A DNA stretch of 37,570 bases from Deltaproteobacteria bacterium (lineage in GTDB: Bacteria; SAR324; NAC60-12). The DNA is taken from the NCBI GenBank assembly GCA_038150265.1, contig JAYOTF010000035.1, forward strand, positions 1 through 37,570, read 5' to 3'. Made by a program: the position numbers and the translations under genes. The notes beneath the pieces are model-generated. The model was not told the DNA's origin. It did not search any database and saw only the letters and a program-made list of their open reading frames with translations. Shown here in pieces: positions 4,370 through 34,926 of this stretch (the first letter of the stretch is position 1; each line of letters begins with the position of its first letter).

Positions 4370-4550
4370 ATGAGTCATGCTGAGGTGTTCGGATCGATCA
4401 CTTCTGCTACCTTATTCGTGATGCACGGAGTGCGTCCCTGAAAGATGTTGCGCGAGCCCGGATGGGAGGCCTGATTCTTTCAAACAACACTCCACCTGGT
4501 GACTCCAGGTACCAGAAGCATCTTCGCTGCGGCACTGCGGTGTGACTCAT
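4370..4550 (+). ncRNA. ssrS: 6S RNA
   Basis: 181 nt just downstream of zapA. The 5' end ATGAGTCATGCTG pairs over 13 bp (with G-U pairs) with the 3' end CGGTGTGACTCAT, continued by GGTGTT/GGCACT. Rod-like closing stem and length are typical of 6S RNA. Confidence 0.82.
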
Positions 4551-4600
4551 TTTCTTCCTGCCTCAGTTCTCTACCCTTCTCCACTTACGTTTCCAAGCGG

Positions 4601-5515
4601 ATGGATTTAGTCGAGCCCTTCTTGCAGATGCTGATTGCTCGACGTTACGCCCCCAACAGCCTCCAGAGCCACCGGCTCGACACCCAGCGGTTTCTCAAGT
4701 GGCTGGCTCCTGAAGACACCAACCCCGTCCCCCTCCTGAAGGCACTTCAGGCCACCGACCTGGAGCGCTACCGGCAGGACCTCGAAGCCGTCTACCGGCC
4801 CCGGACGATTGCCCGGCACTTCTCTTCCCTCAAGCTCTTCCTCGACTTCTGGATGCAGCAGGGGCTGCTGCCGCGCAACCCCGTGCACCAGGTCCGCCTG
4901 CCTTCCATCACGCCCGAGGCGCCTCCGGAAATGCTGGAGCCTCACGAGGTGCAGGCCCTGCTTGCCGCTCCGTCGTTGGACCACTACCTCGGCCTGCGAG
5001 ACCGCACCATGCTGGAGCTGCTTTACTCCAGTGGCCTCAAGGTCACCGAGCTGCTGGGCCTCAATGTCGACGACCTCTTCCTCGACCTCCGGTTCATCAA
5101 GGTGCGGCGCAAGGCCGAGCGGATGGTGCCCATCACAGACCAGGCGGTCACCCTGCTGGAGCGCTACCTCCAGGACGCTCGGGACGCCCGCCTGCTGGCG
5201 CCATCGGACCCCTGCCTGTTTCCCGGCAGAAACGGCACCCGCATCAGCCGCATGGGCTTCTGGGCCATGGTCCGCAAGCATGCTCAGCGCGCCGGCATTC
5301 AGCGCCCGCTCAATCCGCGTCTGCTCCGACATTCCTTTGCCATGCACCTGCTTCAGAACGGCATGGACCTGACGGACCTCCGGGAGCTGTTTGGGTTTGT
5401 AAGTTTGGATGCAACCCTCCAGTATCAGTACGTCAATCGACCGGATTACACGGAAGAGTACCACCGGTTTCACCCGCGTGGCGATGAAGCCCTCAAGTCT
5501 CAGGATTCTGTTTGA
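4601..5515 (+). CDS. XerD-like tyrosine recombinase with degenerate catalytic motif
   Basis: 304 aa from ATG 4601; the track's GTG 4499 start lies inside the 6S RNA. N-terminal SAM-like region (PRTIARHFSSLKLF), GLRDRTMLELLYSSGLKVTEL, ERMVP, LRHSFAMHLLQNG, YHRFHPR. Confidence 0.88.
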   Translation: MDLVEPFLQMLIARRYAPNSLQSHRLDTQRFLKWLAPEDTNPVPLLKALQATDLERYRQDLEAVYRPRTIARHFSSLKLFLDFWMQQGLLPRNPVHQVRLPSITPEAPPEMLEPHEVQALLAAPSLDHYLGLRDRTMLELLYSSGLKVTELLGLNVDDLFLDLRFIKVRRKAERMVPITDQAVTLLERYLQDARDARLLAPSDPCLFPGRNGTRISRMGFWAMVRKHAQRAGIQRPLNPRLLRHSFAMHLLQNGMDLTDLRELFGFVSLDATLQYQYVNRPDYTEEYHRFHPRGDEALKSQDSV

Positions 5516-6771
5516 CCCCAACCTCCAACCCCATTGCCGCCCGGCGCGTCGTGGTCACCTCCATGGGCCTCGTCTCCCCCCTGGGCGCCTCCCCGCAGCT
5601 CTTTTGGGAGCACCTCTGTGCCGGAACCTCCGGGGTCCGGCGCATTGAGCACTTTGATGCCTCCGACGCCGCGTGTCAGCTTGCGGGCATGGTTCCCGAC
5701 TGGGACCCCGGGGAGGCGTTCAGCCGCCGGGAGTTGAAGAGCTACGACCGCTTTGCCCTGCTCGGACTTGCCGCTGCCGCCCAGGCCTGGGAAGGCTCCG
5801 GACTCGCAGACACCCTGGCCGCCCCTCACACCGCTGTGGTCATGGGAACCGGCATTGGGGGCATTGCCTCCTACACCGAACCCTACCATGCGCTCTACGG
5901 AACCCCGCCCCGTCCGCTGAACGCCTACACGATTCCGCGCATCATGAACAGTTCCCTCTCTGCGGCCATTGCCATCAAGTGGGGACTCCGTGGGCCCAAC
6001 CTGACCCTGAACACAGCCTGCTCCTCTGGGGCCAATGCCATTGGACTCGGGTTTCAGTGGATCCGCTCCGGGCAAGCCGAGCGCGTCCTCTGTGGCGGCG
6101 CTGAGGCTCCCATCACGTATGAGCTGCTGCGCACCTGGGAAGCCCTTGGGGTGCTGGTCCGGAACCGGAATGATGCTCCGGAAGCCGCCTGCCGTCCCTT
6201 TGATGAGCAACGGTCCGGATTCGTGCTGGCTGAAGGCGCAGCCGTGCTGCTGCTGGAATCCCTCGATACCGCTCAGCGACGCGGCGCCCCCATCCTCGCG
6301 GAGCTCGTTGGCTACGGCAGTAACTGCGACGCTAGGAGCCTGACCTCACCCGACCAGGAAAGTGTGGCTGAAGCCATGCGGCTGGCCCTCGAAGACTCCG
6401 GACTCTTTCCCGATGACATTGACGCCATCAATGCCCACGGCACCGGAACCCTCGTCAATGATCCGATCGAGGCGCAGGCCATCCGCTCCGTGTTTGGCCC
6501 CCGTTCGGAACGCCTGCCGGTTACGGCCAACAAGTCGATGCTCGGACACAGCATGGGCGCCTCTTCGGCCCTGGAAGCCGTCGCCAGCGTCTTCATGGTC
6601 CAGCACCAGCGCATTCCTCCAACCCGGAACTGCACCCAACGGGATCCGAAGTGCCCGATCGACCCGGTTGCCGACGGAGCCCGCGATGCTCGCCTGCGGG
6701 CGGTTCTCTCCAACTCATTTGCCTTTGGCGGCAGCAATGCCGTCCTGGCCTTTACGCCGGAACCTGCATGA
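5512..6771 (+). CDS. beta-ketoacyl-ACP synthase (FabF/NodE-like)
   Basis: RRVVVTSMG; catalytic Cys in TACSSG; His in NAHGTGT and KSMLGHSMGA; SNSFAFGG. The TTG start overlaps the upstream stop (TTGA). Confidence 0.92.
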   Translation: MTPTSNPIAARRVVVTSMGLVSPLGASPQLFWEHLCAGTSGVRRIEHFDASDAACQLAGMVPDWDPGEAFSRRELKSYDRFALLGLAAAAQAWEGSGLADTLAAPHTAVVMGTGIGGIASYTEPYHALYGTPPRPLNAYTIPRIMNSSLSAAIAIKWGLRGPNLTLNTACSSGANAIGLGFQWIRSGQAERVLCGGAEAPITYELLRTWEALGVLVRNRNDAPEAACRPFDEQRSGFVLAEGAAVLLLESLDTAQRRGAPILAELVGYGSNCDARSLTSPDQESVAEAMRLALEDSGLFPDDIDAINAHGTGTLVNDPIEAQAIRSVFGPRSERLPVTANKSMLGHSMGASSALEAVASVFMVQHQRIPPTRNCTQRDPKCPIDPVADGARDARLRAVLSNSFAFGGSNAVLAFTPEPA

Positions 6772-7016
6772 CGCGACTGGAACTGGAAGCCCTGCTGCGC
6801 ACCGCGCTTGCCAAGGAAATGGACCTCGACCCAGCCTCCATCCACCCGGAGGACCACCTCAAGGACCTTGATGTCGGCTCGCTGGATGCGGTCAACCTGT
6901 TGATGACCCTTGAAGACGAACTGGGCATTGAGGTGGACCTCGAGGACTTTCTGGAGCTTCAGACCGTTGCTCAGTTGCTCGACTTTCTGGAGCAGAAGCT
7001 CCCGTCGGCGTCCTGA
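6768..7016 (+). CDS. acyl carrier protein
   Basis: 82-aa acidic protein from ATG 6768 (ATGA overlap). DLDVGSLDAVNLLMTLEDELGI contains the phosphopantetheine Ser; TVAQLLD helix. Confidence 0.9.
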   Translation: MTRLELEALLRTALAKEMDLDPASIHPEDHLKDLDVGSLDAVNLLMTLEDELGIEVDLEDFLELQTVAQLLDFLEQKLPSAS

Positions 7017-8062
7017 TGCCGCGCATCCTCGCCGTCGCCAGCGGCTTTCCGGAACACTACTACACGCAGCAGCAACTCAGCGCCGCCTTGCGGGAGGTCT
7101 GGCAGCAGCAGCAGCTTGATGTCGCCGTCTTTGACCGGGTCCAAAAGAGTGTCACGGTGTCCGGACGGCACCTGGCGCTGCCCATGGACCGCTACCGGGC
7201 CCTCGACTTTGAGGCAGCCAACCAGGCGTGGCTCGAGACGGCTCTGAGCCTCGGCGAGCAGGTGCTTGGGCGGCTGTTTGCCCAGTCCGGAATGGCGCCA
7301 GACGAGGTGTCGCTGTTTGCCTCGACCACCGTCACGGGCATTGCCGTTCCGTCGCTGGAGGCCCGCCTGATGAACCGCCTGGCCTTCCGTCCGGACACCA
7401 AGCGGATGCCGCTGTTTGGACTCGGGTGCCTTGCCGGAACCGCTGGGGTTGCGCGGCTGCACGACTACCTCCTTGGGCACCCGCGAGACGCCGCCATTTT
7501 GCTGTCCGTGGAGCTCTGCTCCCTCACCCTCCAGCTGGGAGACCTCTCGGTCGCGAACCTCATTTCCAGCGGCTTGTTTGGCGATGGCGCGGCGGCCGTG
7601 CTGATGGTGGGAGACGAGCACCCGCTGGCTGCCGGTCCGGAAACCGTTGCCAGCCGCTCCTGGTTCTTCCCCGATTCCGAAGGCGTGATGGGCTGGGACA
7701 TCACCAACCGGGGCCTCAAGATTGTCCTCAGCCCAGGGGTTCCCGAGTACGCCCGGCAGGTCCGGCCCATTGCCGATCAGCTGCTCAGCGAGCAGGGGCT
7801 GACCCTGGCAGACATCGGAGCCTGGGTCACGCATCCGGGGGGGCCGAAAGTGATTGATGCCCTCGAAGACGCCTTTGCTCTGCCATCCGGAACACTGGAC
7901 CACGTCCGCCAGAACCTCCAGCAAAACGGCAACCTGTCTTCATCGTCTGTTCTTTTGCTGCTGGAGCAGGCCCTGCAGACGCCGCCTTCCACGCCTCACG
8001 GCCTGATGCTGTCGATGGGCCCGGCGTTTTCGGCAGAACTCCTCTTGCTCCGGTGGCCATGA
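7016..8062 (+). CDS. type III polyketide synthase (chalcone synthase-like, BpsA/SrsA type)
   Basis: Cys-His-Asn triad in GLGCLAG, THPGGPKVI and GNLSSSSV. Also VELCSL, LFGDGAAA and MGPAF. Confidence 0.93.
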   Translation: MPRILAVASGFPEHYYTQQQLSAALREVWQQQQLDVAVFDRVQKSVTVSGRHLALPMDRYRALDFEAANQAWLETALSLGEQVLGRLFAQSGMAPDEVSLFASTTVTGIAVPSLEARLMNRLAFRPDTKRMPLFGLGCLAGTAGVARLHDYLLGHPRDAAILLSVELCSLTLQLGDLSVANLISSGLFGDGAAAVLMVGDEHPLAAGPETVASRSWFFPDSEGVMGWDITNRGLKIVLSPGVPEYARQVRPIADQLLSEQGLTLADIGAWVTHPGGPKVIDALEDAFALPSGTLDHVRQNLQQNGNLSSSSVLLLLEQALQTPPSTPHGLMLSMGPAFSAELLLLRWP

Positions 8063-8607
8063 ATCTGGAACTGCTCGGCTTCACCATCCTCGTCGGAGCC
8101 ATTGGCATCCAGCGCGTCAACGAGCTGGTTCAAAGTCGCAGCAACGAAGCGCGGATGCGCGAGCGTGGTGGCTACGAAGTCGCCCCGGAGCACTACCCCA
8201 TCATGGTCGGCCTGCATGCCTCGTGGTTTGCCGCCATGCTGCTGGAAGCGTGGCTCCTGCGGAAGCAGGCGCCGGACAGCACCATTTACTACCCGGCCCT
8301 GGCTGGACTGGCCATTGGGTTGGCGCTGCGCCGTTACGCCATGCGGACCCTGGGAGACCGCTGGAGTACCCGCATCTTCATTGTCCCCAAAGAGGCCCCC
8401 ATCCGGACCGGCCTCTATGGAACGCTCCGGCACCCGAATTACCTCGGGGTCGTGATTGAGCTGGCCAGCGTCCCTCTGCTTTACAACGCCTGGATCACGT
8501 CGGTTGTCTGGTCGGTTGCGAATTTGTTCCTCTTGCGGCATCGTATCCGTTTGGAAGAAGCTGCTCTGCAGCAATCCCTGGCACCCTCACCGCGCTCGCC
8601 GTCATGA
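8059..8607 (+). CDS. isoprenylcysteine carboxyl methyltransferase family membrane protein (BpsB/SrsB-like polyketide methyltransferase)
   Basis: 182-aa hydrophobic protein. QRVNEL..SRSNE, GGYE..PEHYP, LGDRWSTRI, GLYGTLRHPNY, RIRLEE. Coupled to the type III PKS by an ATGA overlap. Confidence 0.9.
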   Translation: MNLELLGFTILVGAIGIQRVNELVQSRSNEARMRERGGYEVAPEHYPIMVGLHASWFAAMLLEAWLLRKQAPDSTIYYPALAGLAIGLALRRYAMRTLGDRWSTRIFIVPKEAPIRTGLYGTLRHPNYLGVVIELASVPLLYNAWITSVVWSVANLFLLRHRIRLEEAALQQSLAPSPRSPS

Positions 8608-10346: not shown

Positions 10347-10364
10347 GCAGGAGGTCCCGTGGAG

Positions 10365-10877
10365 ATGAAGCACCTCAGTGACCGGGCTCGGCGACTGATT
10401 CAGCTCCGTCCGGAAACCATGCGGGCCATTGACGAGGCGCTGGAACGTGGAACCGTCCCCTGCGTCAAGTGCCGCGAAGAGATCCCGCTGGGCGTCCGGG
10501 TCTGTCCCCAGTGTGGGCACGAGTTCCGTCCCCCTTGGTGGAAACAACGCTGGTTGCTGTACTGCGCCCTCACCTTTCCTACCCTCCTCGTGGTGGCCTT
10601 CGGCGCCCTCTGGTGGCTCAACCGCCTCCCCACCTGCAGCTCTCCGGATGCTCAGCTCAAGCTTGCCGAGGCCTTCCGTTTTTCTGACTTTCCAGACCAG
10701 CTTGGGGGGCTTCCCCGAGACATGCTCTACATCCGGGAGCATCCCGATGAGGCGCCTCCGGAAACCCGCCTGTGCTACGGCGTCATGCTCCTTTCCAATG
10801 ACCAGGAGATCGACCTCGACTACCAACTCGTCCGGGACGAATCGGGGTTCCTCCAGGTGACGTTTTCCCTCAAGTAA
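10365..10877 (+). CDS. zinc-ribbon membrane protein
   Basis: CVKC...CPQCG zinc ribbon, one TM helix, C-terminal domain with two Cys. AGGAGG RBS at ~10349-10354. Alternative start GTG 10359. Confidence 0.75.
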   Translation: MKHLSDRARRLIQLRPETMRAIDEALERGTVPCVKCREEIPLGVRVCPQCGHEFRPPWWKQRWLLYCALTFPTLLVVAFGALWWLNRLPTCSSPDAQLKLAEAFRFSDFPDQLGGLPRDMLYIREHPDEAPPETRLCYGVMLLSNDQEIDLDYQLVRDESGFLQVTFSLK

Positions 10878-10943
10878 GCACCCAGCTGCGGCTTTCGTTT
10901 TCAGGCCCTTCGCCCACACGCTCCTCTCGGTGGGCCGGGCCTT

Positions 10944-10964
10944 AAGCGACGAATTTTGTCGCTT
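10944..10964. promoter_or_regulatory. putative WYL-regulator operator, box 1
   Basis: Perfect inverted repeat AAGCGAC-GAATTTT-GTCGCTT in intergenic DNA. Two further copies lie at 11156 and 17887. Confidence 0.6.
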
Positions 10965-11155
10965 TTACGGAGGCATTGCCTCTCACCAGCAGATCACTTC
11001 CCATCCACTTCCCCCTCCAGGAGCCCTCCTCTTTCACGAAACGGTTCGGCTCCTAAAAATCTGAAATCAAATTTTTTATCTCCCCTTTTTCACTCTCAAG
11101 CGCCTCAAAATCCAGAAGGCTCCGGAGGGTCCGTCAAAAACGAGTCATCTCTCAA

Positions 11156-11190
11156 AAGCGACGCAATTTGTCGCATCAATGGGCGATACT
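11156..11190 (+). promoter_or_regulatory. putative WYL-regulator operator, box 2, with -10-like element for the AAA operon
   Basis: AAGCGAC-GCAATTT-GTCGCAT, then TGTCGC-N10-GATACT (11185-11190), about 150 bp upstream of the AAA gene. Confidence 0.68.
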
Positions 11191-11336
11191 AGAGGCTGTT
11201 CTGGTTACGGTTTCGAGCAACTCAGAGCCCCTTGCCGGCGTCCTCAACGGTTCCCTTGCCGGGGTTCCGGAGACACCGGTTTCGGCAGTTCCGTGTGCTC
11301 GGGAGCCCAGCTTTCCTCCTCAAACGAGATCGAGTG

Positions 11337-12338
11337 ATGACCCCCAAGAAGTTAAGCCGCGCCTTGAGCCAGTTGGCTCGCCACCGGGAATCCAGCAGTC
11401 TGATGATCTGGGGACCTCCCGGGGTCGGAAAATCCAGCCTCGTTGCTCAGGTGGCGGAAGAGCAGGAACTCGAACTGGTCGATGTCCGCCTCAGCCAGCT
11501 GGCACCGACGGATCTGCGTGGGTTGCCCGTCGCTGAGCAGGGAGTTTCCACGTGGTACCCACCGGAGTTCCTGCCTCGGTGCGGGAGGGGCATTTTGTTT
11601 CTCGATGAATTGAACATGGCGACTCCAGCCGTGCAGGGCGTTGCCCAGCAGTTGGTTTTGGACCGCAAGGTTGGGAACTATACGGTGCCGGAGGGTTGGA
11701 TGATCTGGGCGGCGGGGAACCGCCGGGAAGATCAGGCCTCGGTGTTTCAGATGCCCGCGCCCCTGGCCAACCGCTTCCTGCACTTTACGGTGGAACCGAG
11801 CCTGAAGGATTTTCGGGAGTATGGCCGGAAGGTCGGCCTGCATGAGCGGCTGTTGGCGTTCCTGGCCTTCCGCCCGGAGTTGCTGCACCGCCTGGATGCA
11901 CAGCAGCCCGCCTGGCCGTCTCCACGAACCTGGGAGTTGGCCCACCGCCTCTTGCAGGCAGACCTTCCGGTTCATGCTGCTGTGGGAGATGCCGCTGCAG
12001 GTGAGTTTGAGGCGTTTGTTCAGGTGTACGCCTCGCTTCCCAACTGGCAAAAGATCCTTGCCGGGATTCCGGGCGAAGCGTTTCCGGAAAATCCCGGCGC
12101 TCGCTTTGCGCTCATCACCAGCTTGGCCCACCACTGCCAAACCGTGGAGCAAGCCGTGAACACGGCCGTGTGGCTGACGGAAAACGCGCCCCATGAGTGG
12201 GGTCAGCTCTTCTTCAAGGAGCTGATGCCCGCCTTGCGTCAGCAGCAGCTGACGGCAGCGTTCAGTCGGAAATTCCTCGCCACTCCCGAGCTGCGCGGCT
12301 TTCTCAAGGAGTTCAAGAACCTGATGGAGGCGGCATGA
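11337..12338 (+). CDS. MoxR-like AAA+ ATPase
   Basis: 333 aa from ATG 11337. Walker A WGPPGVGKS, DVRLSQ..PTDLRGLP, Walker B LFLDELN, sensor AAGN, PLANRF, WPSPRTW. Confidence 0.9.
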   Translation: MTPKKLSRALSQLARHRESSSLMIWGPPGVGKSSLVAQVAEEQELELVDVRLSQLAPTDLRGLPVAEQGVSTWYPPEFLPRCGRGILFLDELNMATPAVQGVAQQLVLDRKVGNYTVPEGWMIWAAGNRREDQASVFQMPAPLANRFLHFTVEPSLKDFREYGRKVGLHERLLAFLAFRPELLHRLDAQQPAWPSPRTWELAHRLLQADLPVHAAVGDAAAGEFEAFVQVYASLPNWQKILAGIPGEAFPENPGARFALITSLAHHCQTVEQAVNTAVWLTENAPHEWGQLFFKELMPALRQQQLTAAFSRKFLATPELRGFLKEFKNLMEAA

Positions 12339-13486
12339 CCCCGGAAGCGAACGCAAGCTCCTCTGAAGCAGCAGAGGCCCCCCTGCGTCGGCGCATTCAG
12401 GCAGCCCAACTGCGGATCCGGACAGCCATGCCCTTTTTTGGCACGCTCCTGCTGTTTGCACGCTGGGAGATCACCCGGAGCCTTTCCACAGCCGCCACGG
12501 ATGGCCAGACCATTCAGATCAATCCGGACTTTGCCGCAGGGCTGAAGGCTCCCGAACTGGACGCCGTGCTGCTCCACGAAGTCCTGCATGCGGCCCTGCA
12601 GCACCCCTCACGTCGCAAGCGCCGAGACCCCGTCCGCTGGAATTTCGCTGCCGATGTTGTGGTCAATGGCATGATCCAGTCCCTCCCCGAGTTCAAGCTG
12701 CCCTCCAACGCGATCCGGAAACGAGACCTGGAGCACCTGTCTGTGGAGGAGGTTTACGAAAAATTGGAGCTTCCTCCGGACTGGAAACAGCAGCTGGCAG
12801 ACTGGGGAGACTTGCTGGACGCCGGCGACAGGCAAGACGAGATGGAAGAGCCGGAAACCGCCCACTACTGGAAAATGGCCCTCCAGCAGGCAGAAGTTTT
12901 GGCACTCTCTCATCCGCAGAAAAAATGGCCGGCGGGCCTCACACGCGAGCTGGGGGCTCTCCGTCCGGGGACCCTCGACTGGCGCAGCTACCTGCGACGC
13001 TTTCTTGTGCAGACGCCCGTGGATTTCCAGGGGTTCGACCGACGCTTCATCGGGCGTCAGCTTTACCTGGACGCACTGGAAGGAGAATCGCTCACCGTGT
13101 CCATCTGCATCGATACCAGCGGTTCCATCACCTCAGACGAGCAAGCCCGACTGCTGGGGGAAGTGCAGAACCTGATGCAGCAGTACCCTCATCTTTCAGC
13201 CGAGTTGTTTTATGCCGATGACCATCTGTATGGGCCATGGTCGCTGAATGCAGAGAGCCCGCTTCGCAAACCGATTGGCGGAGGCGGAACGTCCTTTCGT
13301 CCCTTTTTTCAGCACCTGAACCGGAATGCAGCGGTCCGGAGCCCCCAGGTGGCCATTTACCTGACCGACGGATGGGGAAGTTTTCCACAAAAGCCTCCGG
13401 AGGTTCCCACTCTGTGGGTGGTGTCTTCCGGAGGCCTCAACGAGAAAGGCTTCCCGTTTGGAGAAGTCGTGAGAATGGGGGCCTAA
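12335..13486 (+). CDS. HExxH metallopeptidase-like domain plus VWA-like domain protein (DUF2201 type)
   Basis: 383 aa from ATG 12335 (ATGA overlap, GGAGG RBS). TAATDG, LLHEVLH, WNFAAD; MIDAS-type DTSGS, GGGGTSF, YLTDGWG. Confidence 0.88.
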   Translation: MTPEANASSSEAAEAPLRRRIQAAQLRIRTAMPFFGTLLLFARWEITRSLSTAATDGQTIQINPDFAAGLKAPELDAVLLHEVLHAALQHPSRRKRRDPVRWNFAADVVVNGMIQSLPEFKLPSNAIRKRDLEHLSVEEVYEKLELPPDWKQQLADWGDLLDAGDRQDEMEEPETAHYWKMALQQAEVLALSHPQKKWPAGLTRELGALRPGTLDWRSYLRRFLVQTPVDFQGFDRRFIGRQLYLDALEGESLTVSICIDTSGSITSDEQARLLGEVQNLMQQYPHLSAELFYADDHLYGPWSLNAESPLRKPIGGGGTSFRPFFQHLNRNAAVRSPQVAIYLTDGWGSFPQKPPEVPTLWVVSSGGLNEKGFPFGEVVRMGA

Positions 13487-13646: not shown

Positions 13647-13967
13647 ATGTCAATCCGCAGTTCCATCAAGAGGCTTTCAGAAGTGCTCCAGATCCTTCAG
13701 CAGTATGAAAATCACACGCCTCCGCCTGTGGAGATCGGTTTTTACCGGACCTTCAACAACAGCATCGTCTACATCTCCGAGATCGACCACGATCACGATG
13801 GACGGGCCGTGATTCTTTCCGGGGGAATCGATAACCATACCCCGGGAGACAGCTACTGGATCGTAGATGGGTACCACCGGGAGACCGACATCGGATCGCA
13901 CCTGGTGCTGGGGGTTGCCGAAAAACTGGACCTCACCCTCCCGGAATTCCCCACCCCAAGCACCTGA
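13647..13967 (+). CDS. small hypothetical protein, paralogue A
   Basis: 106 aa, AAGGAG RBS before ATG 13647. Clearly homologous to the next ORF. Confidence 0.8.
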   Translation: MSIRSSIKRLSEVLQILQQYENHTPPPVEIGFYRTFNNSIVYISEIDHDHDGRAVILSGGIDNHTPGDSYWIVDGYHRETDIGSHLVLGVAEKLDLTLPEFPTPST

Positions 13968-14004: not shown

Positions 14005-14358
14005 ATGAGCCCTCAACAGGAAAGAGCGGCTCGCTTCCGGAGCAATCTGGCAGAGATGAAGCGGCTCGTTGCACGCCTGGAGCCCTTTGCCCACCACACG
14101 CCTCCGTTGCCTCAGGTCGGGGGGCTCTACCGGACTCTGAATGACAGTACCGTTTACGTTTCCCGGCACATCAAGAAGGCGTTCTCACAGAACCAGGTTG
14201 AGGTGGTCCTTCTGGTGGGGGAGGGGCCCGGACTCGAGCCGGGAGACCCATACGTTCTCAACGATGATGGGACGCACCCGGACCGAGAGCCCGGCGAGCA
14301 CCTGCTTTTGGGGTTGGCGGAGCTGCTGGACGTGGACACCGATCCGGAGCCTCCCTAA
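14005..14358 (+). CDS. small hypothetical protein, paralogue B
   Basis: 117 aa, GAGGG RBS before ATG 14005. Shares HTPP, YRT.N.S.VY.S, PGD.Y, DG.H and G.HL.LG.AE.LD with paralogue A. Confidence 0.8.
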   Translation: MSPQQERAARFRSNLAEMKRLVARLEPFAHHTPPLPQVGGLYRTLNDSTVYVSRHIKKAFSQNQVEVVLLVGEGPGLEPGDPYVLNDDGTHPDREPGEHLLLGLAELLDVDTDPEPP

Positions 14359-14362
14359 GCGC

Positions 14363-15370
14363 TCAGGGAAACTCGGGCTGGTAGAGTGCCAGCACTCGCC
14401 TCGCTTCCTGCCGCAACTCTTCTCTCAAAAACTCAGGCTCCAGCACCTCTACGCTGGAGCCATACCCACGCAGCCACCAGCGCAGTTGCTGGAGGTCTCG
14501 CACTTCCGCTTCCACGAGCCAGGAGTTGCCTTCGGAATGGATCACCTGTTGTTCGCTCAGCCGCACTTCCTGCAGGTGCGCCGCCGTATCAGCATCCGTC
14601 CGCAGCTTCAGTTTCAGGGTGCGGTCACTGCTGCGGTAGTTGAACACGCCACTGTCGAGGTAGTCCTGGAGCCCCGTATAAGGCTCCGGCCACTCGAGCG
14701 GCTGTTCCGTCAGCTCTGCTGTTGAAATCCGATTGACCGGAAGCCGAACCACGTAGTCTCTTCCGGGAAACGCGCCCACCAGGTAGTTGAGATGCCCGAA
14801 CCAGACCAGTCCCAATGGGCTGATCTGGTAGGACTGAGGCTCGGTCGCGCCCCGTTTGAGGTAGGAGATTTTCACCTGCTGCTCCTGCAGAAGCCCTTCG
14901 GAGAGGATGCCCATGACCTCAGGATCCAGTTTGGGCGCCAGCAGAGGCAGTCCGGGTGGCACCACCGCCACCTTGTCCATCCATGAGTTCATCCCGTTGT
15001 GACTCGCCTGCCGCAAAATCTCTCGAGCTCGATCAAAGTGCTGCTGCAGCGAGTCGTAGGTGCTTCTGGGGAGCAAATTGGCCAGAAAGCGCTCAATCAT
15101 CCCAAAGGTCAGGGCCGTCCGGACATCCATTGCCGGCAGCTCCAGAGCCTTTGCCTCCGACGTCCAGCACCACCCCCGAGGCTTGTGTTCGTCACCCACC
15201 AGGGGAAAGATTCTTGACAGCTGCAGAATGTCGCGTTCCAGAGTCCGGCGGGTGCTCGTGAACCCCCGCTCGTGCAGACGCTGCTCCAGCTCCGCCAGGG
15301 TCGTCTTGCGTGGCGTCCGTGGCACCAGCTCCAGCATCTTCAGTTGTCGTAAAAGCGTGTCAGACATCAT
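14363..15370 (-). CDS. HTH-WYL-WCX transcriptional regulator
   Basis: N-terminal wHTH (LAELEQRL...TRRTLERDILQL), WYL core (ISYLKRG...ISPLGLV...NYLVG...RLPVNRI), C-terminal WCX (LRWWLRGYGSSVEVLEPEFLREEL). Confidence 0.92.
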   Translation of the reverse strand: MMSDTLLRQLKMLELVPRTPRKTTLAELEQRLHERGFTSTRRTLERDILQLSRIFPLVGDEHKPRGWCWTSEAKALELPAMDVRTALTFGMIERFLANLLPRSTYDSLQQHFDRAREILRQASHNGMNSWMDKVAVVPPGLPLLAPKLDPEVMGILSEGLLQEQQVKISYLKRGATEPQSYQISPLGLVWFGHLNYLVGAFPGRDYVVRLPVNRISTAELTEQPLEWPEPYTGLQDYLDSGVFNYRSSDRTLKLKLRTDADTAAHLQEVRLSEQQVIHSEGNSWLVEAEVRDLQQLRWWLRGYGSSVEVLEPEFLREELRQEARRVLALYQPEFP

Positions 15371-15408: not shown

Positions 15409-16359
15409 CTAGGATGACGGCTCACACCGATCCACCCAGACAAACGCCTGATCCGTTAAGGACGCCTCACTTGACCAGCGGTAGGCGACCAGCTTTCCGT
15501 TTGCCCGAGCCACGCTGTAGTCGACACAGGCGACGTTCCGGGCCAGCAGCCGCGGAGGGCCCGTCATCCAGTAGTGTCCGAGGAAGACCGGAGGTTGGTC
15601 TGAACCGTAGCCCAGCTGATGACGGGACTGCATCGGCCTCTCCGGAAGCTGCGCCCGCTCCTGTTCCGGCCCCATGAAGGCGGCTCGGTACGTCGTCGCA
15701 GCTTCATCCCACCAGCGCACCCGGATGTGATCTCGCGCGTGGCCATACGGATCCGTAAAGGTGACCCCTTCAGGCAAAGCAACCTCCTTGCCCTTCAGGA
15801 GCACCTCCAGGGCCTCAAACTCCGGACGGCCTGCCGTGAACACGGGCGTGAGCAGAGCCTCCGAAAGCCGGTTTCCCGGTGCCAGGGCGTGATGGCTCTG
15901 CAGCTGAGCCTGACATGCTTCATCCCAGCACGCATGAATCAGGCGGAAGCCTTCCAACTCGAGCCAGAGCGGCAACGTCTTGAACCACTCGAGCGCGCGC
16001 TGATGCTCCTCGGAGCCCAGGGGGAACTCGTTGAGAAAACGCTGATGCTGCCTGGTATTTTTGTCCAGATGCGGCCGGAGGTACTGCCCTTCGGGACCTG
16101 GAGTACCGTAGCCAATGGCATTGAGTTCGTGATTGCCCATCACGGCAACCGCCGCCCCTTGCTCCACCATCGGCTGAACCAGCTCCAGCACCTCCCGCTG
16201 CCCGGGGCCGTCTCCGTCAATGAAGTCTCCCAGAAAGGCCGCTGTTCGGCTCGCATGCCGAAGCACCCCCTGAGCATCGGGCTGGTAGCCCAGCTGGTCC
16301 AAAAGCGCTTTCAGGCTCTGCGCGCAGCCATGAATGTCTCCAATGATGTCGTAGGGCAT
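15409..16359 (-). CDS. calcineurin-like metallophosphoesterase
   Basis: 316 aa from ATG 16359. IIGDIHG, FLGDFID, MGNHE, LIHACW, FLGHYW, CVDYS. Confidence 0.9.
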   Translation of the reverse strand: MPYDIIGDIHGCAQSLKALLDQLGYQPDAQGVLRHASRTAAFLGDFIDGDGPGQREVLELVQPMVEQGAAVAVMGNHELNAIGYGTPGPEGQYLRPHLDKNTRQHQRFLNEFPLGSEEHQRALEWFKTLPLWLELEGFRLIHACWDEACQAQLQSHHALAPGNRLSEALLTPVFTAGRPEFEALEVLLKGKEVALPEGVTFTDPYGHARDHIRVRWWDEAATTYRAAFMGPEQERAQLPERPMQSRHQLGYGSDQPPVFLGHYWMTGPPRLLARNVACVDYSVARANGKLVAYRWSSEASLTDQAFVWVDRCEPSS

Positions 16360-16494: not shown

Positions 16495-17739
16495 TCAGTC
16501 GCGCAAGCCAAATCCCCCAAGCTGCCGCAACGTGCCATAGGCTCGGCTCAGGCGTCCGGCATCGGAGTCGGTTGTTCGCTCGCTGAGCGAGGCACGCCAG
16601 GAGTGGGGAAAGGCCGAGGCTCCATGGAGGGCTCCGAGCACCATCCCAACCAGGGCCGCAATGGTGTCATTGTCCCAGGTGTCGGTCACCGCTCGGACCA
16701 TCGCCTCCTCCGGGTCATCAAAGTGACACTCCAGGAGGTGCAGCACGGTGGGAACCGTTTCCAGAAGGTAGGCGCCCGAGTACCAGTGCTCCCCAGCACT
16801 TCGGATCGATTTTCCCTGCCTCAACGCCTGAGGCACCTGCTGTTCCACGAGGTCACACAGGGACCCCTGAAACGCATTCCCCGGGACGCGAGAACGAAGC
16901 TGAGGGGCGCCTTCCAACGGGCGAGCCGTCTCAACAAACGTCTCCCAGAAAAACCCGGGTCGAGCAAAATCAGGATTCTGGAGGAGGAGCCCCAGGATGC
17001 GGGCAAAGGCCACACACGAGGCCGTCGAAGTCGGATCGTCATGCGTGAGGGCGCTCGCAACCGCAACCGCCTCCAGGGCGTGCGCGTCCAGGGTCCAGGC
17101 ATGAGGAAGCAACGCTCCCGCGACCCTCATCAGCGCGCCATTGCCAGCGCTGAACTGCCGGGCCTCCCAGGGATCTGCTCCAGGTCCCAGTTGATCCAGC
17201 TTCCGGAAGAAACCCCGCAGGGTTCCCCCTATCCCATACAGCCGATGCTGGCGAAACGCCTGCGCCAGGGCCCCAGGATCGGGCCACCCGTGCTCCAGCA
17301 AGGTTTCCAGAGTCCAGACCGTGAGTTGCGTGTCATCACTGGGCAGCCCCAGGCGCTCACCGTGGGCATGGCGGTTGGGCAGGTAGCCACGGATTTCACC
17401 ATAACGAGAGCGGCGCTCGGAGGGACGCAACGACTCTGATGTGTTGCCCAGCGCATCTCCAATGGCGACTCCCCAAAGCGCCCCCTTCACCCGGTCGGCT
17501 GGCAAGGGGCCGCCCCCTAAGCGCCCTCCGGGAAGCAAGGCAGGCGGCAGAGCCTCCAGACGAATCCTTCCGGACGCCAGCAAGCCTTCCAGCTGCTCAT
17601 GAACACGTTGCTGCATCTCGGCCAGGGAACCCGCATAAACAGGATCCTGATAACGAAAGGGGCGACGGGCAATCCAACCTCCCACGCCGGCGGATAACCC
17701 TGTCTCTGTGAAACGAGGATGAGTTGAGGCATCAGGCAT
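16495..17739 (-). CDS. ADP-ribosylglycohydrolase (ARH/DraG family)
   Basis: 414 aa from ATG 17739 with AAGGAG RBS. GALWGVAIGDALG, PSDDTQLT, SAGNGALMR, SALTH, WDNDTIAALVG. Confidence 0.9.
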   Translation of the reverse strand: MPDASTHPRFTETGLSAGVGGWIARRPFRYQDPVYAGSLAEMQQRVHEQLEGLLASGRIRLEALPPALLPGGRLGGGPLPADRVKGALWGVAIGDALGNTSESLRPSERRSRYGEIRGYLPNRHAHGERLGLPSDDTQLTVWTLETLLEHGWPDPGALAQAFRQHRLYGIGGTLRGFFRKLDQLGPGADPWEARQFSAGNGALMRVAGALLPHAWTLDAHALEAVAVASALTHDDPTSTASCVAFARILGLLLQNPDFARPGFFWETFVETARPLEGAPQLRSRVPGNAFQGSLCDLVEQQVPQALRQGKSIRSAGEHWYSGAYLLETVPTVLHLLECHFDDPEEAMVRAVTDTWDNDTIAALVGMVLGALHGASAFPHSWRASLSERTTDSDAGRLSRAYGTLRQLGGFGLRD

Positions 17740-17872
17740 CAAGGATCTCCTTGCTTGATTGTGAAGAAAGAGTTCTTGCGGCAGAATGAGTGGACCGCGA
17801 GCCGGTCGCTGCAAGCACGGTTGGGGGCTCCGGGGCGAAGCTCCAACAGAAGCCTCTCCCACCATGGATTCC

Positions 17873-17907
17873 AGTCTACCTGCGTCAAACGACAAGTAAT
17901 GTCGCAT
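17873..17907 (-). promoter_or_regulatory. putative WYL-regulator operator, box 3, with -10 element for the ARH arm
   Basis: Minus strand reads ATGCGAC-ATTACTT-GTCGTTT, then TGTCGT-N10-TAGACT (17878-17873). Same spacing as box 2; about 135 bp upstream of the ARH start. Confidence 0.7.
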
Positions 17908-18025
17908 CAAAAACGTTCGTGTCTTCCACCTTCATTGGGTGATCGTCTGCTCCCCTCTTCAGGAGCGACGGCGCTGCGTGTTTGCGGGCGGGCAGCACGG
18001 CACGGCCTCCTGAACCGGCCGCTTC

Positions 18026-18048
18026 TACAAACTGATACAAGCTGTTAC
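18026..18048. promoter_or_regulatory. 10-bp direct repeat, candidate OmpR/CpxR-family binding site
   Basis: TACAAACTGA-TACAAGCTGT-TAC; reverse strand GTAAC-N5-GTATC-N5-GTA. About 85 bp upstream of the response regulator. Confidence 0.5.
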
Positions 18049-18131
18049 TCGCCGGAGAGGCACCCTGGCCTCCGATCTCCTAAGCTGGTTTCATCGGCAC
18101 CATGCCTGCTTTCCACTCCAACAAGCTCTCC

Positions 18132-32125: not shown

Positions 32126-32202
32126 TGGCGCGCCTGGAGTGATTCGAACACCCGACCCTTGGGATCGAAACCCAATGCTCTATCCAGCTGAGCTACAGGC
32201 GC
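32126..32202 (-). tRNA. tRNA-Arg (anticodon UCG)
   Basis: Minus strand GCGCCTGTAGCTCAGCTGGATAGAGCA-TTGGG-TTTCGAT-CCCAA-GGGTC-GGGTG-TTCGAAT-CACTC-CAGGCGC-GCCA, 77 nt. Confidence 0.96.
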
Positions 32203-32952: not shown

Positions 32953-33804
32953 TCACTCCGCAAAGATCGGGCGATCCCAGTGGGCGCGGCCCCACGCCTG
33001 AATGGCACGATAGAGGTCGGTGTCCTGCAAAAACCGCAGCTCAAAACTCGTCCGGAGCATCGCCTCAATCGCATCCTGTGACGTGGGCGACGAAAAGGCC
33101 CGGAGCTTCGGCTGCCCATTCAGCAGCACGCTGAGCAAGCGCGTCAGGTCATGCCCCCGGACGACCCGCCAGGGGTCGTGTCCTTCCCGGCGCAACCCCT
33201 TGAGGTCCTTCCGGAGTTGGGAAAACGGCGGCAAGCGAGGCGGGTTCAGCTTCTGCAGGGTGTGGTAAAGCTGCCGCAGGTCGATCTCCAGCTCTTCGGG
33301 GGTCACAAAGCGAGAGAAGTCCACATGCTGCATGGGGAGGTTGTAGCGAAACCGCTGGCTGGCCATCCGGACGTATCCCAGCGTCTGCCCGGCATCCAGC
33401 AGCAGCCCCCGCAGGGTGTCCTGACGCTGCGGCTCCAGGAAGCGCTCCAGCTTGCGCTGGTCAAAGAAGTGCCGGAGGAATTTCTCAAACGCGGGCGAGC
33501 GGATGATCAGGGTTTCATGATCATGCGTGTCCGTCACAAAGACCGGAAGCCCCTCCGGAATCTGCTCTCCAAAATCCGCATCCACAATCCCGATCACATC
33601 CGGACGGTCCTCCAGCAGCAGCAGGGCCTCAAAGACGTTGTACTTTCCTCCTGCCGGAATGAAACGGGTCCAGTCGGCACTGAAGAAGCTCTGGTAAAAC
33701 CGGTCGTCTGACAGCCCTTCCACCAGAATGAAGAGCCCCTCAAAGCGCCGGCTCATCATCCGGACGACGTTGGCAGCGTCGGTGTGTCGTAGCGCGCTCC
33801 GCAC
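32953..33804 (-). CDS. DUF4435 / TOPRIM-like putative nuclease (AriB-like)
   Basis: ILVEGLSD (TOPRIM Glu), GGKYNV, GIVDADF (DxD), TDTHDHET, RGHDL. The GTG start abuts the ATPase stop; later ATG starts are possible. Confidence 0.8.
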   Translation of the reverse strand: MRSALRHTDAANVVRMMSRRFEGLFILVEGLSDDRFYQSFFSADWTRFIPAGGKYNVFEALLLLEDRPDVIGIVDADFGEQIPEGLPVFVTDTHDHETLIIRSPAFEKFLRHFFDQRKLERFLEPQRQDTLRGLLLDAGQTLGYVRMASQRFRYNLPMQHVDFSRFVTPEELEIDLRQLYHTLQKLNPPRLPPFSQLRKDLKGLRREGHDPWRVVRGHDLTRLLSVLLNGQPKLRAFSSPTSQDAIEAMLRTSFELRFLQDTDLYRAIQAWGRAHWDRPIFAE

Positions 33805-34926
33805 TCAGACCGTAATTTCCAGGGTGCGGTCCCAGTGGTTCCCCACGATCTGTGGAGAATGGGTCGCAATGAGAAACTGCCCACCCGTCAGCTCTGCCAG
33901 CCGCAGGAGGTCATCCATGAAGGAGTACTGCCACTCCACGTGCCACGAAAGCTCCGGCTCATCCAGCAGCACCAGCGTCTGGGGAGTCGTCTCAAAGAGA
34001 AGGCGGTGCAGGAGCACAATGAGGTGCTGCTCTCCAGAAGAGAGGCGGTCGAGCGGAAGCAGCTGCCCCGACGCCAGCAGCACGGCGTACCCGAGGCGCC
34101 GGTCAATGCGGACCTGCTTGAGCCGGAGGCGCCGGTGCAGCAGGCGCAGCAGCTGCCGAATCTGGTCCCGGAGCGTCTGGAGGCTTTCGAGCTTGGCCAA
34201 CTGCTGCTCGACATAGACCAGCACCAGCGGCCGCTGCTCCGGAGGCAGCCGAGGCAGCTCCGGAGGCAGGTCCATCGGATCAATCAACCCCAGCCGCGCC
34301 AGCTCCTCCAGCAGGTCCCGCAGTTCATCCAGCCGTTGCTGCAGCCGCTCGGGATCCACCTCTTCCGGAAGCGCATCCAGGGTACTCAGGAAGCGGAAGT
34401 CCTGTGCCAGGCTCTCATTGAGCAGCTGGTCCAGAATGGCGGTCAAGCGCTGGCGCATCTCCGTGGCACACTGCTGCACTGCGCTTCCCGGCGGACCGCT
34501 GAGGCGGTTGCTTCCCAGGAGCAAAACGGGATGCTGCTCGCAGAACTGGTTCAGCCACCCGGCTTCCGGAAGGGGGCCTTCGGAGTCTGTGTGACTCCAG
34601 AGCGGCCCCAGGGGCAGCTCCAGCTCCCGGACTTCCTCCCCCTGCGTGAGGGTCAGCGCCAGGGTTCCCTCCAGGGGTTTGGACCGGACCGGAATCCGGC
34701 GCTCCACGCGCAACTCAGCCTCCTCCCACTGCAGAGTCAGGCGGTCAAAGGGCAAGCGAGCCAGACCCGGCCAGTTCTGGTTCAATGTGAAGGAGATGGA
34801 CTCCAGCAGAGTGGACTTGCCCACCCCGTTTTCGCCGTGAAGCAGCAGCACCGGCTCTTCAGCATGGAGGGCTAACTCATGAGTGTGGGCCTCAAAGAGG
34901 CCTTCGATGTAGATTCGTTGCAGCAT
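33805..34926 (-). CDS. ABC-type ATPase with coiled-coil insert (AAA_21-like, AriA-like)
   Basis: IYIEGLF, Walker A HGENGVGKST, signature LSSGEQH, Walker B LLDEPELSWH, H-loop IATHSP. Confidence 0.88.
   Translation of the reverse strand: MLQRIYIEGLFEAHTHELALHAEEPVLLLHGENGVGKSTLLESISFTLNQNWPGLARLPFDRLTLQWEEAELRVERRIPVRSKPLEGTLALTLTQGEEVRELELPLGPLWSHTDSEGPLPEAGWLNQFCEQHPVLLLGSNRLSGPPGSAVQQCATEMRQRLTAILDQLLNESLAQDFRFLSTLDALPEEVDPERLQQRLDELRDLLEELARLGLIDPMDLPPELPRLPPEQRPLVLVYVEQQLAKLESLQTLRDQIRQLLRLLHRRLRLKQVRIDRRLGYAVLLASGQLLPLDRLSSGEQHLIVLLHRLLFETTPQTLVLLDEPELSWHVEWQYSFMDDLLRLAELTGGQFLIATHSPQIVGNHWDRTLEITV

Follow-up and report, generated by a model that had tools for sequence, protein, structure and literature searches.

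The WYL gene cluster and its bounding boxes

The 37,570-bp contig JAYOTF010000035.1 of a SAR324 bacterium (hereafter the window, meaning the whole stretch that was analyzed) contains a cluster of seven genes, one of which encodes a regulator with a WYL domain, and three copies of the palindrome CGAC-N7-GTCG (boxes 1 to 3), which we analyzed here as candidate sites of that regulator. Based on Pfam and the list of open reading frames (ORFs), the cluster consists of two convergent operons, one on the plus strand (the AAA arm) and one on the minus strand (the ADP-ribosylglycohydrolase, or ARH, arm). The AAA arm begins with an AAA_5/MoxR-like ATPase (11337..12338), whose start is backed by the N-terminus of a homologue in a related locus (L070), and continues with a putative metallopeptidase (DUF2201_N, with the motif HEVLH) that also carries a VWA-like DUF2201 domain (12335..13486; its start overlaps the AAA stop as ATGA) and with two small proteins of 106 aa (small protein 1, 13647..13967) and 117 aa (small protein 2, 14005..14358). 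The ARH arm begins with a DraG/Tri1-like ADP-ribosylglycohydrolase (16495..17739), followed by a calcineurin-like metallophosphoesterase that resembles PrpE, ApaH and the Pnkp phosphatase (15409..16359; the likely start is the ATG at 16359, in a frame that is open to 16395), and ends with the 335-aa regulator, whose winged helix-turn-helix (wHTH) precedes the WYL and WCX domains (14363..15370). The AAA, ARH and WYL genes had been called as such in an earlier inspection of the DNA without database searches (hereafter the sequence-only reading), and these calls were right, as the Pfam families are AAA_5, ADP_ribosyl_GH and WYL plus WCX. Where the arms meet, their stop codons are 4 nt apart (14358-14363) with no terminator in between; the single strong terminator-like hairpin (11 pairs, minus strand), at 14436-14461, is within the 3' end of the WYL gene. 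Transcription from one arm could run on into the other or have antisense effects.

Box 1 (10944..10964, no strand assigned; AAGCGAC-GAATTTT-GTCGCTT, core 10947-10961) is a perfect 7+7 palindrome and the best of the three. Box 2 (11156..11176, plus strand; AAGCGAC-GCAATTT-GTCGCAT, core 11159-11173) precedes the AAA arm, and box 3 (17887..17907, minus strand; core 17890-17904), which reads AAACGAC-AAGTAAT-GTCGCAT on the plus strand and ATGCGAC-ATTACTT-GTCGTTT on the minus strand, precedes the ARH arm. Five or six of the seven spacer positions in the boxes are A or T. These positions and sequences, and the intergenic location of all three boxes, were as first reported by the sequence-only reading. 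Direct reading also bore out its observation that a -10-like hexamer comes after both box 2 and box 3 at one fixed spacing, as TGTCGC-N10-GATACT (hexamer at 11185..11190, plus strand) and, on the minus strand, TGTCGT-N10-TAGACT (hexamer at 17873..17878); when counted from the last G of GTCG, both gaps are 11 nt. Box 1 has no -10 at this spacing on either side, the hexamers that flank it there being GCATTG and GCCCAC.

The two promoters so delineated lack a normal -35 element, as had also been claimed. The -35 position of the box 2 promoter (11162-11167) is CGCAAT, a match to TTGACA in 1/6 positions, and that of the box 3 promoter is CATTAC, with 0/6 matches. No TG precedes either GATACT or TAGACT, and a consensus scan reported no sigma-70-type promoter for either arm. 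From the positions of the hexamers, transcription is predicted to start near 11197 on the plus strand and near 17866 on the minus strand. No Rfam match was found in the leader of either arm, and a comparison of the two leaders revealed nothing in common besides the box and the hexamer. An ATG at 17863-17865 (minus strand), exactly 7 nt past TAGACT, is in frame with the ARH gene and would add 42 residues to its product. A leaderless start at this codon is possible, but the ATG at 17739, which has an AAGGAG ribosome-binding site 5 nt before it, is the more likely start.

Chance expectation for the boxes

The count of the core by itself is only marginal: CGACN7GTCG occurs 3 times in 37,570 bp versus 0.83 expected, and since 3 copies were reached in 4 of 100 shuffles, we regard this count as weak evidence. 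What makes the boxes worthy of attention is their placement, as all three lie in the intergenic gaps on either side of the WYL cluster (10878-11336 and 17740-18101), which together make up ~2% of the window. An extended pattern, allowing up to two mismatches, gave 7 strand-matches versus 0.65 expected, a number reached in none of 100 shuffles; however, this test is circular because the pattern was written from the window's own sites. An independent measure was therefore taken from a 42-nt matrix built from the promoters of relatives alone (described below), whose training sites scored 18.0-42.1 bits. On this matrix box 3 (minus strand) scored 30.2 bits and box 2 (plus strand) 26.0 bits, the next-best site in the window was box 2 on its opposite strand at 14.6 bits, and the maximum over 20 shuffled windows was 15.3 bits. 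The marginal core count is what would favor a chance coincidence of three palindromes and nearby hexamers; given the matrix scores, the confinement of the boxes to so small a part of the window and the recurrence of the same spacing throughout the family, we consider such a coincidence extremely improbable.

The box and its spacing recur beside distant homologues

In order to obtain relatives of the regulator, a genome collection was scanned with a 10-row alignment, which gave 117 pattern matches, 93 of them encoding a relative, and the best 80 loci were kept. These loci total 897,688 bp, are labeled as Nitrosomonadales, Desulfuromonadales, Spiribacter, SAR86, Competibacteraceae, Planctomycetaceae, Acidimicrobiales and others, and encode homologues 28-43% identical to the window protein over the best aligned segment. 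Exact cores numbered 100 in the 80 loci, giving 200 box sides. The hexamer TAnnnT was present exactly 11 nt past GTCG on 43/200 sides, versus 0-5 sides at each of the other 34 offsets (0-10 and 12-34), and no search over offsets was involved in this count because the value of 11 nt had been fixed beforehand by the window. The 43 sides correspond to 41 boxes and 39 distinct sequences. With the less stringent hexamer NAnnnT, 64/100 boxes had a match at offset 11 on at least one side, versus 2-22 at other offsets. Neither the 11-nt gaps nor the spacers of these promoters are conserved, and the gaps carry no information. We argue that the box and hexamer are under selection because the sequence between them has not been retained in related loci.

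The family promoters have no -35, and most have no extended -10. The AT content of the box spacers is 61%, versus a background of 45%; when spacers of 16-18 were allowed, 36 of the 39 promoters matched TTGACA in at best 1-2/6 positions and the other three in 3/6, which is below that of random windows; and an extended -10 TG was found in 5/39. A relaxed matrix with heavier pseudocounts identified 112 sites of at least 16 bits in 60 of the 80 loci, versus 2 in one shuffle. Forty-four of the 112 carry core variants of the CGTC/GACG type, which DriD and DdaA, the WYL activators of Caulobacter and Acinetobacter, likewise tolerate (PMC10853764; PMC13010146).

The location of the boxes relative to the WYL genes bears on which protein reads them. 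It is conceivable that the boxes are true DriD-type sites served by another WYL paralog elsewhere in the genome, such as a master damage regulator, and that the local WYL gene is only one of its targets. Cross-recognition of this kind can be imagined, as CGAC-N7-GTCG is common to DriD (Alphaproteobacteria), DdaA (Acinetobacter) and the clade studied here; furthermore, our view of the source genome spans 37.6 kb, and two of the loci (L058 and L062) hold two WYL homologues each. Such an arrangement seems quite improbable to us, since 25/100 boxes lie within 250 nt upstream of a WYL gene, a zone that makes up 2% of the sequence (~12-fold enrichment), since box promoters occur in three-quarters of a set of loci sampled only for holding a homologue, and since the residues expected to read the box are present in the local protein.

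Genes downstream of the boxes in relatives

To define what the box promoters drive, up to three ORFs were chained past each of the 43 promoter sides, yielding 90 ORFs, and 43 of these were run through Pfam (WYL genes, very short ORFs and repeats from near-identical loci were left out). A family was found for 26/43. These included double-AAA Cdc48-like ATPases (5), DUF2779 proteins (4), PDDEXK_4 nucleases (3), proteins of the uracil-DNA glycosylase (UDG) superfamily (2) and PP2C phosphatases (2), as well as an MmeI restriction-modification enzyme with a Schlafen/AlbA_2 protein after it, a homologue of the window metallophosphoesterase, and others. The WYL gene itself is a frequent destination: 10/43 promoter sides lead into it, either directly or behind one small gene (11 counting L070), and in ten further loci a CGTC-variant promoter aimed at the WYL gene lies ~110 nt upstream of it. 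Positive autoregulation would therefore be common in the clade, as we propose for the window.

Pairs of back-to-back boxes, separated by 49-87 bp and on facing strands, occur in six loci. In four of the six TAnnnT is present at the fixed spacing on both, and in the other two (L021 and L039) one box has NAnnnT only. Among the loci of Competibacteraceae and similar bacteria (L066-L080), back-to-back box promoters 49-69 bp apart are found in L068, L071, L073 and L077; one promoter leads to a double-AAA ATPase of ~730 aa in L068 and L071, and the other promoter in this group leads to an ORF of 138-161 aa without a family and then to the WYL gene. In three loci (L015, 6885-12242; L022; L031) two box promoters flank the WYL homologue, and one of them points away from the WYL gene toward an ORF of 147-166 aa and a phosphoesterase that is 44-46% identical to that of the window. 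The second box of L015 is within the last 35 nt of the WYL gene and leads to the MmeI-type enzyme and the Schlafen/AlbA_2 protein.

The regulator resembles DriD

Pfam placed the WYL domain of the regulator at residues 152-219 and the WCX domain at 251-327, and an AlphaFold2 model (mean predicted local distance difference test, pLDDT, 86.8) showed an N-terminal unit of three helices and a wing. The protein thus has the order wHTH-WYL-WCX in a single chain of ~330 aa, as DriD and DdaA do. All five matches in a sequence search of the PDB were DriD constructs (E 4e-10 to 2e-9, over the WYL-WCX part), and a profile of 34 homologues matched DriD best (2.6e-19) and then PafBC, the mycobacterial activator (9e-15). 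Foldseek gave the same order, with DriD at 1.6e-15 (full-length, 345 columns), PafBC at 1.4e-11, CapW at 5e-8 and BrxR at 6e-7; the accompanying TM-scores were low (~0.35), as is expected for a multi-domain protein with swinging domains.

The recognition helix (residues 41-54) begins R41-R42-T43-L44-E45-R46. In DriD, R37 and R41 read the two guanines of a half-site, E40 contacts C1, and R36 and T38 touch phosphates (PMC10853764), and in DdaA the equivalents of the reading arginines are R47 and R51 (PMC13010146). The pair of arginines at i and i+4 that typifies these two proteins is thus present in the window protein as R42 and R46, the equivalence here being inferred from residue type and spacing. 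The same can be said of the tyrosines that sense single-stranded DNA (ssDNA), which are Y168 and Y192 in DriD and Y173 and Y200 in DdaA (PMC13010146): Y170 and Y196 of the window protein align with the FRY and NYL motifs of DriD. All four residues are invariant in the 34 alignment rows and are also retained in the homologues of the 80 loci (R42 in 66/68, R46 in 68/71, Y170 in 77/77 and Y196 in 75/77).

With regard to oligomeric state, which in activators of the DriD/DdaA type is a homodimer joined through the WCX domains, a homodimer model scored 0.69, versus 0.00 for the best of three controls, with contact agreement of at least 91% between runs and a partner pLDDT of at least 83. Of proteins solved as pairs of one chain, 20/30 reached the mark that it passed, as did 1/23 of those solved as single chains; this pass may show likeness only, because a dimer complex of DriD has already been solved. 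The cluster has one WYL gene, and so neither the two subunits nor the fusion of PafBC is represented.

Comparison with known WYL systems

DriD of Caulobacter crescentus (PDB 8tp8 and 9pfq) is the closest of the known systems, being the best match in both sequence and fold. Its consensus is ATACGAC(X)7GTCGTAT with an AT-rich center (PMC10853764), which agrees with the CGAC-N7-GTCG palindrome that the sequence-only reading had named for it. [quoted passage not shown] In the same source, TTGACA of the "optimised -35" didA probe occupies core positions 4-9; with a 17-bp spacer, our reading of the printed probe sequence would put the DriD -10 at 11 nt past the core, as in the window. Further similarities are the Arg-x3-Arg of the recognition helix, an xYL motif (NYL in both), the two tyrosines and a site that would drive the regulator's own operon. 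Conversely, DriD is only ~19-24% identical to the window regulator, its flanks are TACGAC/GTCGTA rather than GCGAC/GTCGC, and its targets are didA, recA, bapE and recJ rather than an ARH, a phosphoesterase, and an AAA ATPase with a DUF2201 peptidase. The window regulator also differs in being the last gene of a three-gene operon.

DdaA, the DNA damage response activator of Acinetobacter baylyi, requires CGAC-N7-GTCG for binding in electrophoretic mobility shift assays and for activation (PMC13010146), and the equivalents of its R47/R51 and Y173/Y200 are kept in the window protein. Unlike the window sites, its aciT site is ~160 bp upstream of the gene; its regulon is different, and no Acinetobacter protein was among the homologues or loci that we retrieved. 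PafBC, which acts by sigma adaptation in mycobacteria, is like the protein we propose here in being an activator that senses ssDNA. Its promoters lack a -35 and carry a "-26 element"; their motif, tGTCgg(N10)tA(N3)T (PMC8635444), contains the TGTCGG-N10-TA that had likewise been named correctly, and the promoter-proximal half reads the same as TGTCGC/T-N10-(T/G)AnnCT of the window. However, PafBC is a heterodimer or fusion on a non-palindromic element, whereas the window has a palindrome and one protein that is predicted to be a homodimer.

CapW and BrxR, the repressors of CBASS and BREX systems, have the same domain order as the window protein and also adjoin variable, horizontally moving cargo. 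On this basis it could be asked whether the window regulator is a repressor of their type that, bound to the boxes as its operators, keeps the promoters occluded and is released by a ligand. Repression is typical of WYL regulators that lie next to variable, island-like cargo (PMC9122601; PMC11662680), the cargo in our relatives includes the restriction-modification enzyme, Schlafen/AlbA_2 protein and PD-(D/E)XK nucleases noted above, and a box over the -35 position could equally well block polymerase. We nevertheless consider repression unlikely. Promoters with no -35, and mostly with no extended -10, offer little to repress. BrxR operators are 10-11-bp repeats with a 5-bp spacer located downstream of the -10 (PMC9122601), whereas the boxes of the window have a 7-bp spacer and lie upstream of it, and the CapW site printed in PMC11662680 has no CGAC; thus operator sequence, spacing and position all differ. 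The RWHVR that replaces the WYL motif as the signature of these repressors (PMC11662680) is absent, the position being LNYLV in the window protein (HLNYLVG) and VTYLV in the family consensus (VTYLVAT), in 34/34 rows. Lastly, both the structural and the profile searches placed DriD and PafBC before CapW and BrxR. In every sequence-level trait that typifies DriD and DdaA the window agrees with them, and it departs from PafBC and from CapW/BrxR in the traits that typify those systems.

Box 1

Box 1 was more difficult to assign. It is 212 bp upstream of box 2 and 67 nt past the stop of a zinc-ribbon gene (10359-10877), and as a promoter it scored only 9.1 and 4.1 bits on the relatives-only matrix. 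That it is an auxiliary site for the WYL protein, as the sequence-only reading suggested, is a guess, and a hairpin would be just as conceivable. In favor of a role in binding are its half-sites, which are the perfect family consensus GCGAC/GTCGC, its being the sole core in the window besides the two promoter boxes, and the precedent that the bapE promoter of DriD also has two putative sites (PMC13004042). The alternative is that it acts as RNA, with no protein bound, as a hairpin that serves as a weak intrinsic terminator or stabilizer at the 3' end of the zinc-ribbon gene. In the plus-strand RNA, box 1 would fold into a hairpin of 9 bp with UUUU after it, and a GC-rich hairpin immediately precedes this structure (the z-score of the 108-nt region is -3.6), and the lack of a -10 on both sides fits such a role; however, any palindrome folds, and a terminator scan gave no flag at box 1. 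We lean against the hairpin as the sole explanation while regarding it as a real contender, and box 1 may serve the WYL protein as an auxiliary or decoy site, act as a weak terminator, or do both.

Cargo genes and other features of the window

For the DUF2201 protein, a search returned at least 2,531 homologues with E 1e-10 or better, those nearest to it being ~50% identical and from Cyanobacteria, Ktedonobacteria and Capsulimonas; it also had a weak SprT-like match (E 0.0013). A literature search on DUF2201 found no functional study, as judged on titles or the start of abstracts. The two small proteins are paralogs (36% identity, E 6e-12) that have in common an HTPP motif, and no Pfam, NCBIfam or PADLOC family was identified for either. 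A likeness of small protein 2 to SGNH/GDSL proteins, derived from Atlas fragments with 143 shared features, was under the reliable level and was not used. PADLOC gave nothing for the cluster cargo beyond a weak P-loop match to IetA, and for this reason we did not file the cluster as a known defense system. No operon combining WYL and ADP-ribosylglycohydrolase genes was found in the literature, again as judged on titles or the start of abstracts. In one locus of the 80, L070 (4524-5842), homologues of both the AAA ATPase (66% identity) and the DUF2201 protein (49%) lie beside a WYL homologue. This copy seems partial, as only portions of both genes were matched by tblastn, and no box was found in the 1.3 kb read upstream of it.

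Rfam identified only two tRNAs and 6S RNA across the window. The 6S RNA gene (4374-4547, 48.6 bits) immediately precedes a tyrosine recombinase (Phage_integrase) ORF (4499-5515), the called start of which it overlaps. A beta-ketoacyl synthase, a type III polyketide synthase-like enzyme and an ICMT-family methyltransferase follow in a row at 5512-8607, which suggests a small lipid or polyketide cluster. At 32953-34926 (minus strand) a DUF4435 protein is paired with an AAA_15/AAA_21 ATPase; the pair adjoins the tRNA at 32129-32202 and looks like a small defense-type module.

A model for regulation of the cluster

Taken together, we consider it probable (roughly 75%) that the WYL regulator encoded between boxes 2 and 3 has its cognate sites in these two boxes, that each box with its -10 at 11 nt forms a hybrid promoter without a -35, of the kind used by DriD, DdaA and PafBC, and that both operons are activated from them. 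The proposal that the local WYL protein activates both arms, including its own gene, was made by the sequence-only reading, and it is now supported in silico by the DriD-like character of the protein, the residues that are kept, the recurrence of the spacing beside distant homologues and the lack of a -35. In this model, a wHTH-WYL-WCX homodimer would read the two CGAC half-sites through Arg42 and Arg46, together with Glu45, of each recognition helix. The dimer would sit over the -35 position, with the center of the box near -31, at the predicted sites in the AAA-arm promoter (box 2) and the ARH-arm promoter (box 3), and would recruit or stabilize RNA polymerase carrying the housekeeping sigma factor on promoters that have only a -10. 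The AAA-DUF2201-small-protein operon would thereby be switched on rightwards, and the ARH-phosphoesterase-WYL operon leftwards, the latter amounting to positive autoregulation. By analogy with the known activators, the trigger may be a ligand in the WYL domain, most likely ssDNA that arises from DNA damage or from invasion by foreign DNA.

It is important to note the points that weigh against this model. Binding, the effector and the start sites are predictions, as we infer them, along with activation over repression and a role of the cargo in repair or defense, from the data above. Sequence comparison gave no alignment of the wHTH with DriD (in the PDB search the N-terminal 80 residues matched only ArgR, at E 0.087), and the residue equivalence therefore depends on identical residue types and spacing and on the full-length Foldseek match, for which residue pairs were not printed. 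Several residues that contact ssDNA in DriD are changed in the window protein (R189 to H, W206 to L, R207 to P and R178 to Y). The hexamer of box 2, GATACT, departs from TAnnnT, and 36/100 family boxes have no hexamer with A2 and T6 at offset 11. The leaders in the window are long (~140 nt in the AAA arm and ~127 nt in the ARH arm), whereas in relatives the first ORF mostly begins 20-70 nt past the hexamer. The cargo is not kept with the regulator: tblastn against the 80 loci found the ARH and both small proteins in none, AAA and DUF2201 in one and the phosphoesterase in three. The loci share descent, so that their counts are not fully independent and overstate independence to that extent. Lastly, box frequency in the source genome was counted over the 37.6-kb window.

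A broader idea, which we offer tentatively and regard as doubtful in its full form, is that GCGAC-N7-GTCGC-N10-TAnnnT is a transferable promoter cassette that travels with one clade of WYL activators and wires whatever cargo adjoins it to a single ssDNA alarm. The records of the clade are labeled Proteobacteria, Desulfobacterota, Bacteroidota, Planctomycetota and Actinomycetota, and the cargo known elsewhere includes Cdc48-like ATPases, nucleases (PD-(D/E)XK and DUF2779), enzymes of the UDG family and restriction enzymes. In the window, the cassette would control an undescribed two-armed module, induced by damage or phage, with the ARH and Pnkp-like phosphoesterase in one arm and the MoxR-type ATPase, the SprT-like/VWA metallopeptidase and the two small paralogs in the other, and the module may reverse ADP-ribosylation, heal nucleic-acid ends and remove protein adducts.

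Our analyses support in silico the assignment of the window regulator as a DriD/DdaA-type activator, together with its boxes, that has an undescribed regulon, and the conservation of a known promoter rule across a scattered clade. For the SAR324 cluster this provides two precise predictions of transcription starts and a candidate regulator for seven genes, five of which are without an assigned role (the DUF2201 peptidase, its AAA partner, the two small paralogs and this ARH). DriD, DdaA and PafBC each read a CGAC-type half-site, and a -10 at a fixed distance without a -35 has been published for DriD and PafBC. Since a distant, widely scattered WYL clade also has the half-site with a -10 at exactly 11 nt, this rule might allow WYL regulons to be read straight from sequence. 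If the cargo of the window is indeed induced by ssDNA, then the widespread AAA-DUF2201 pair would gain its first functional lead.

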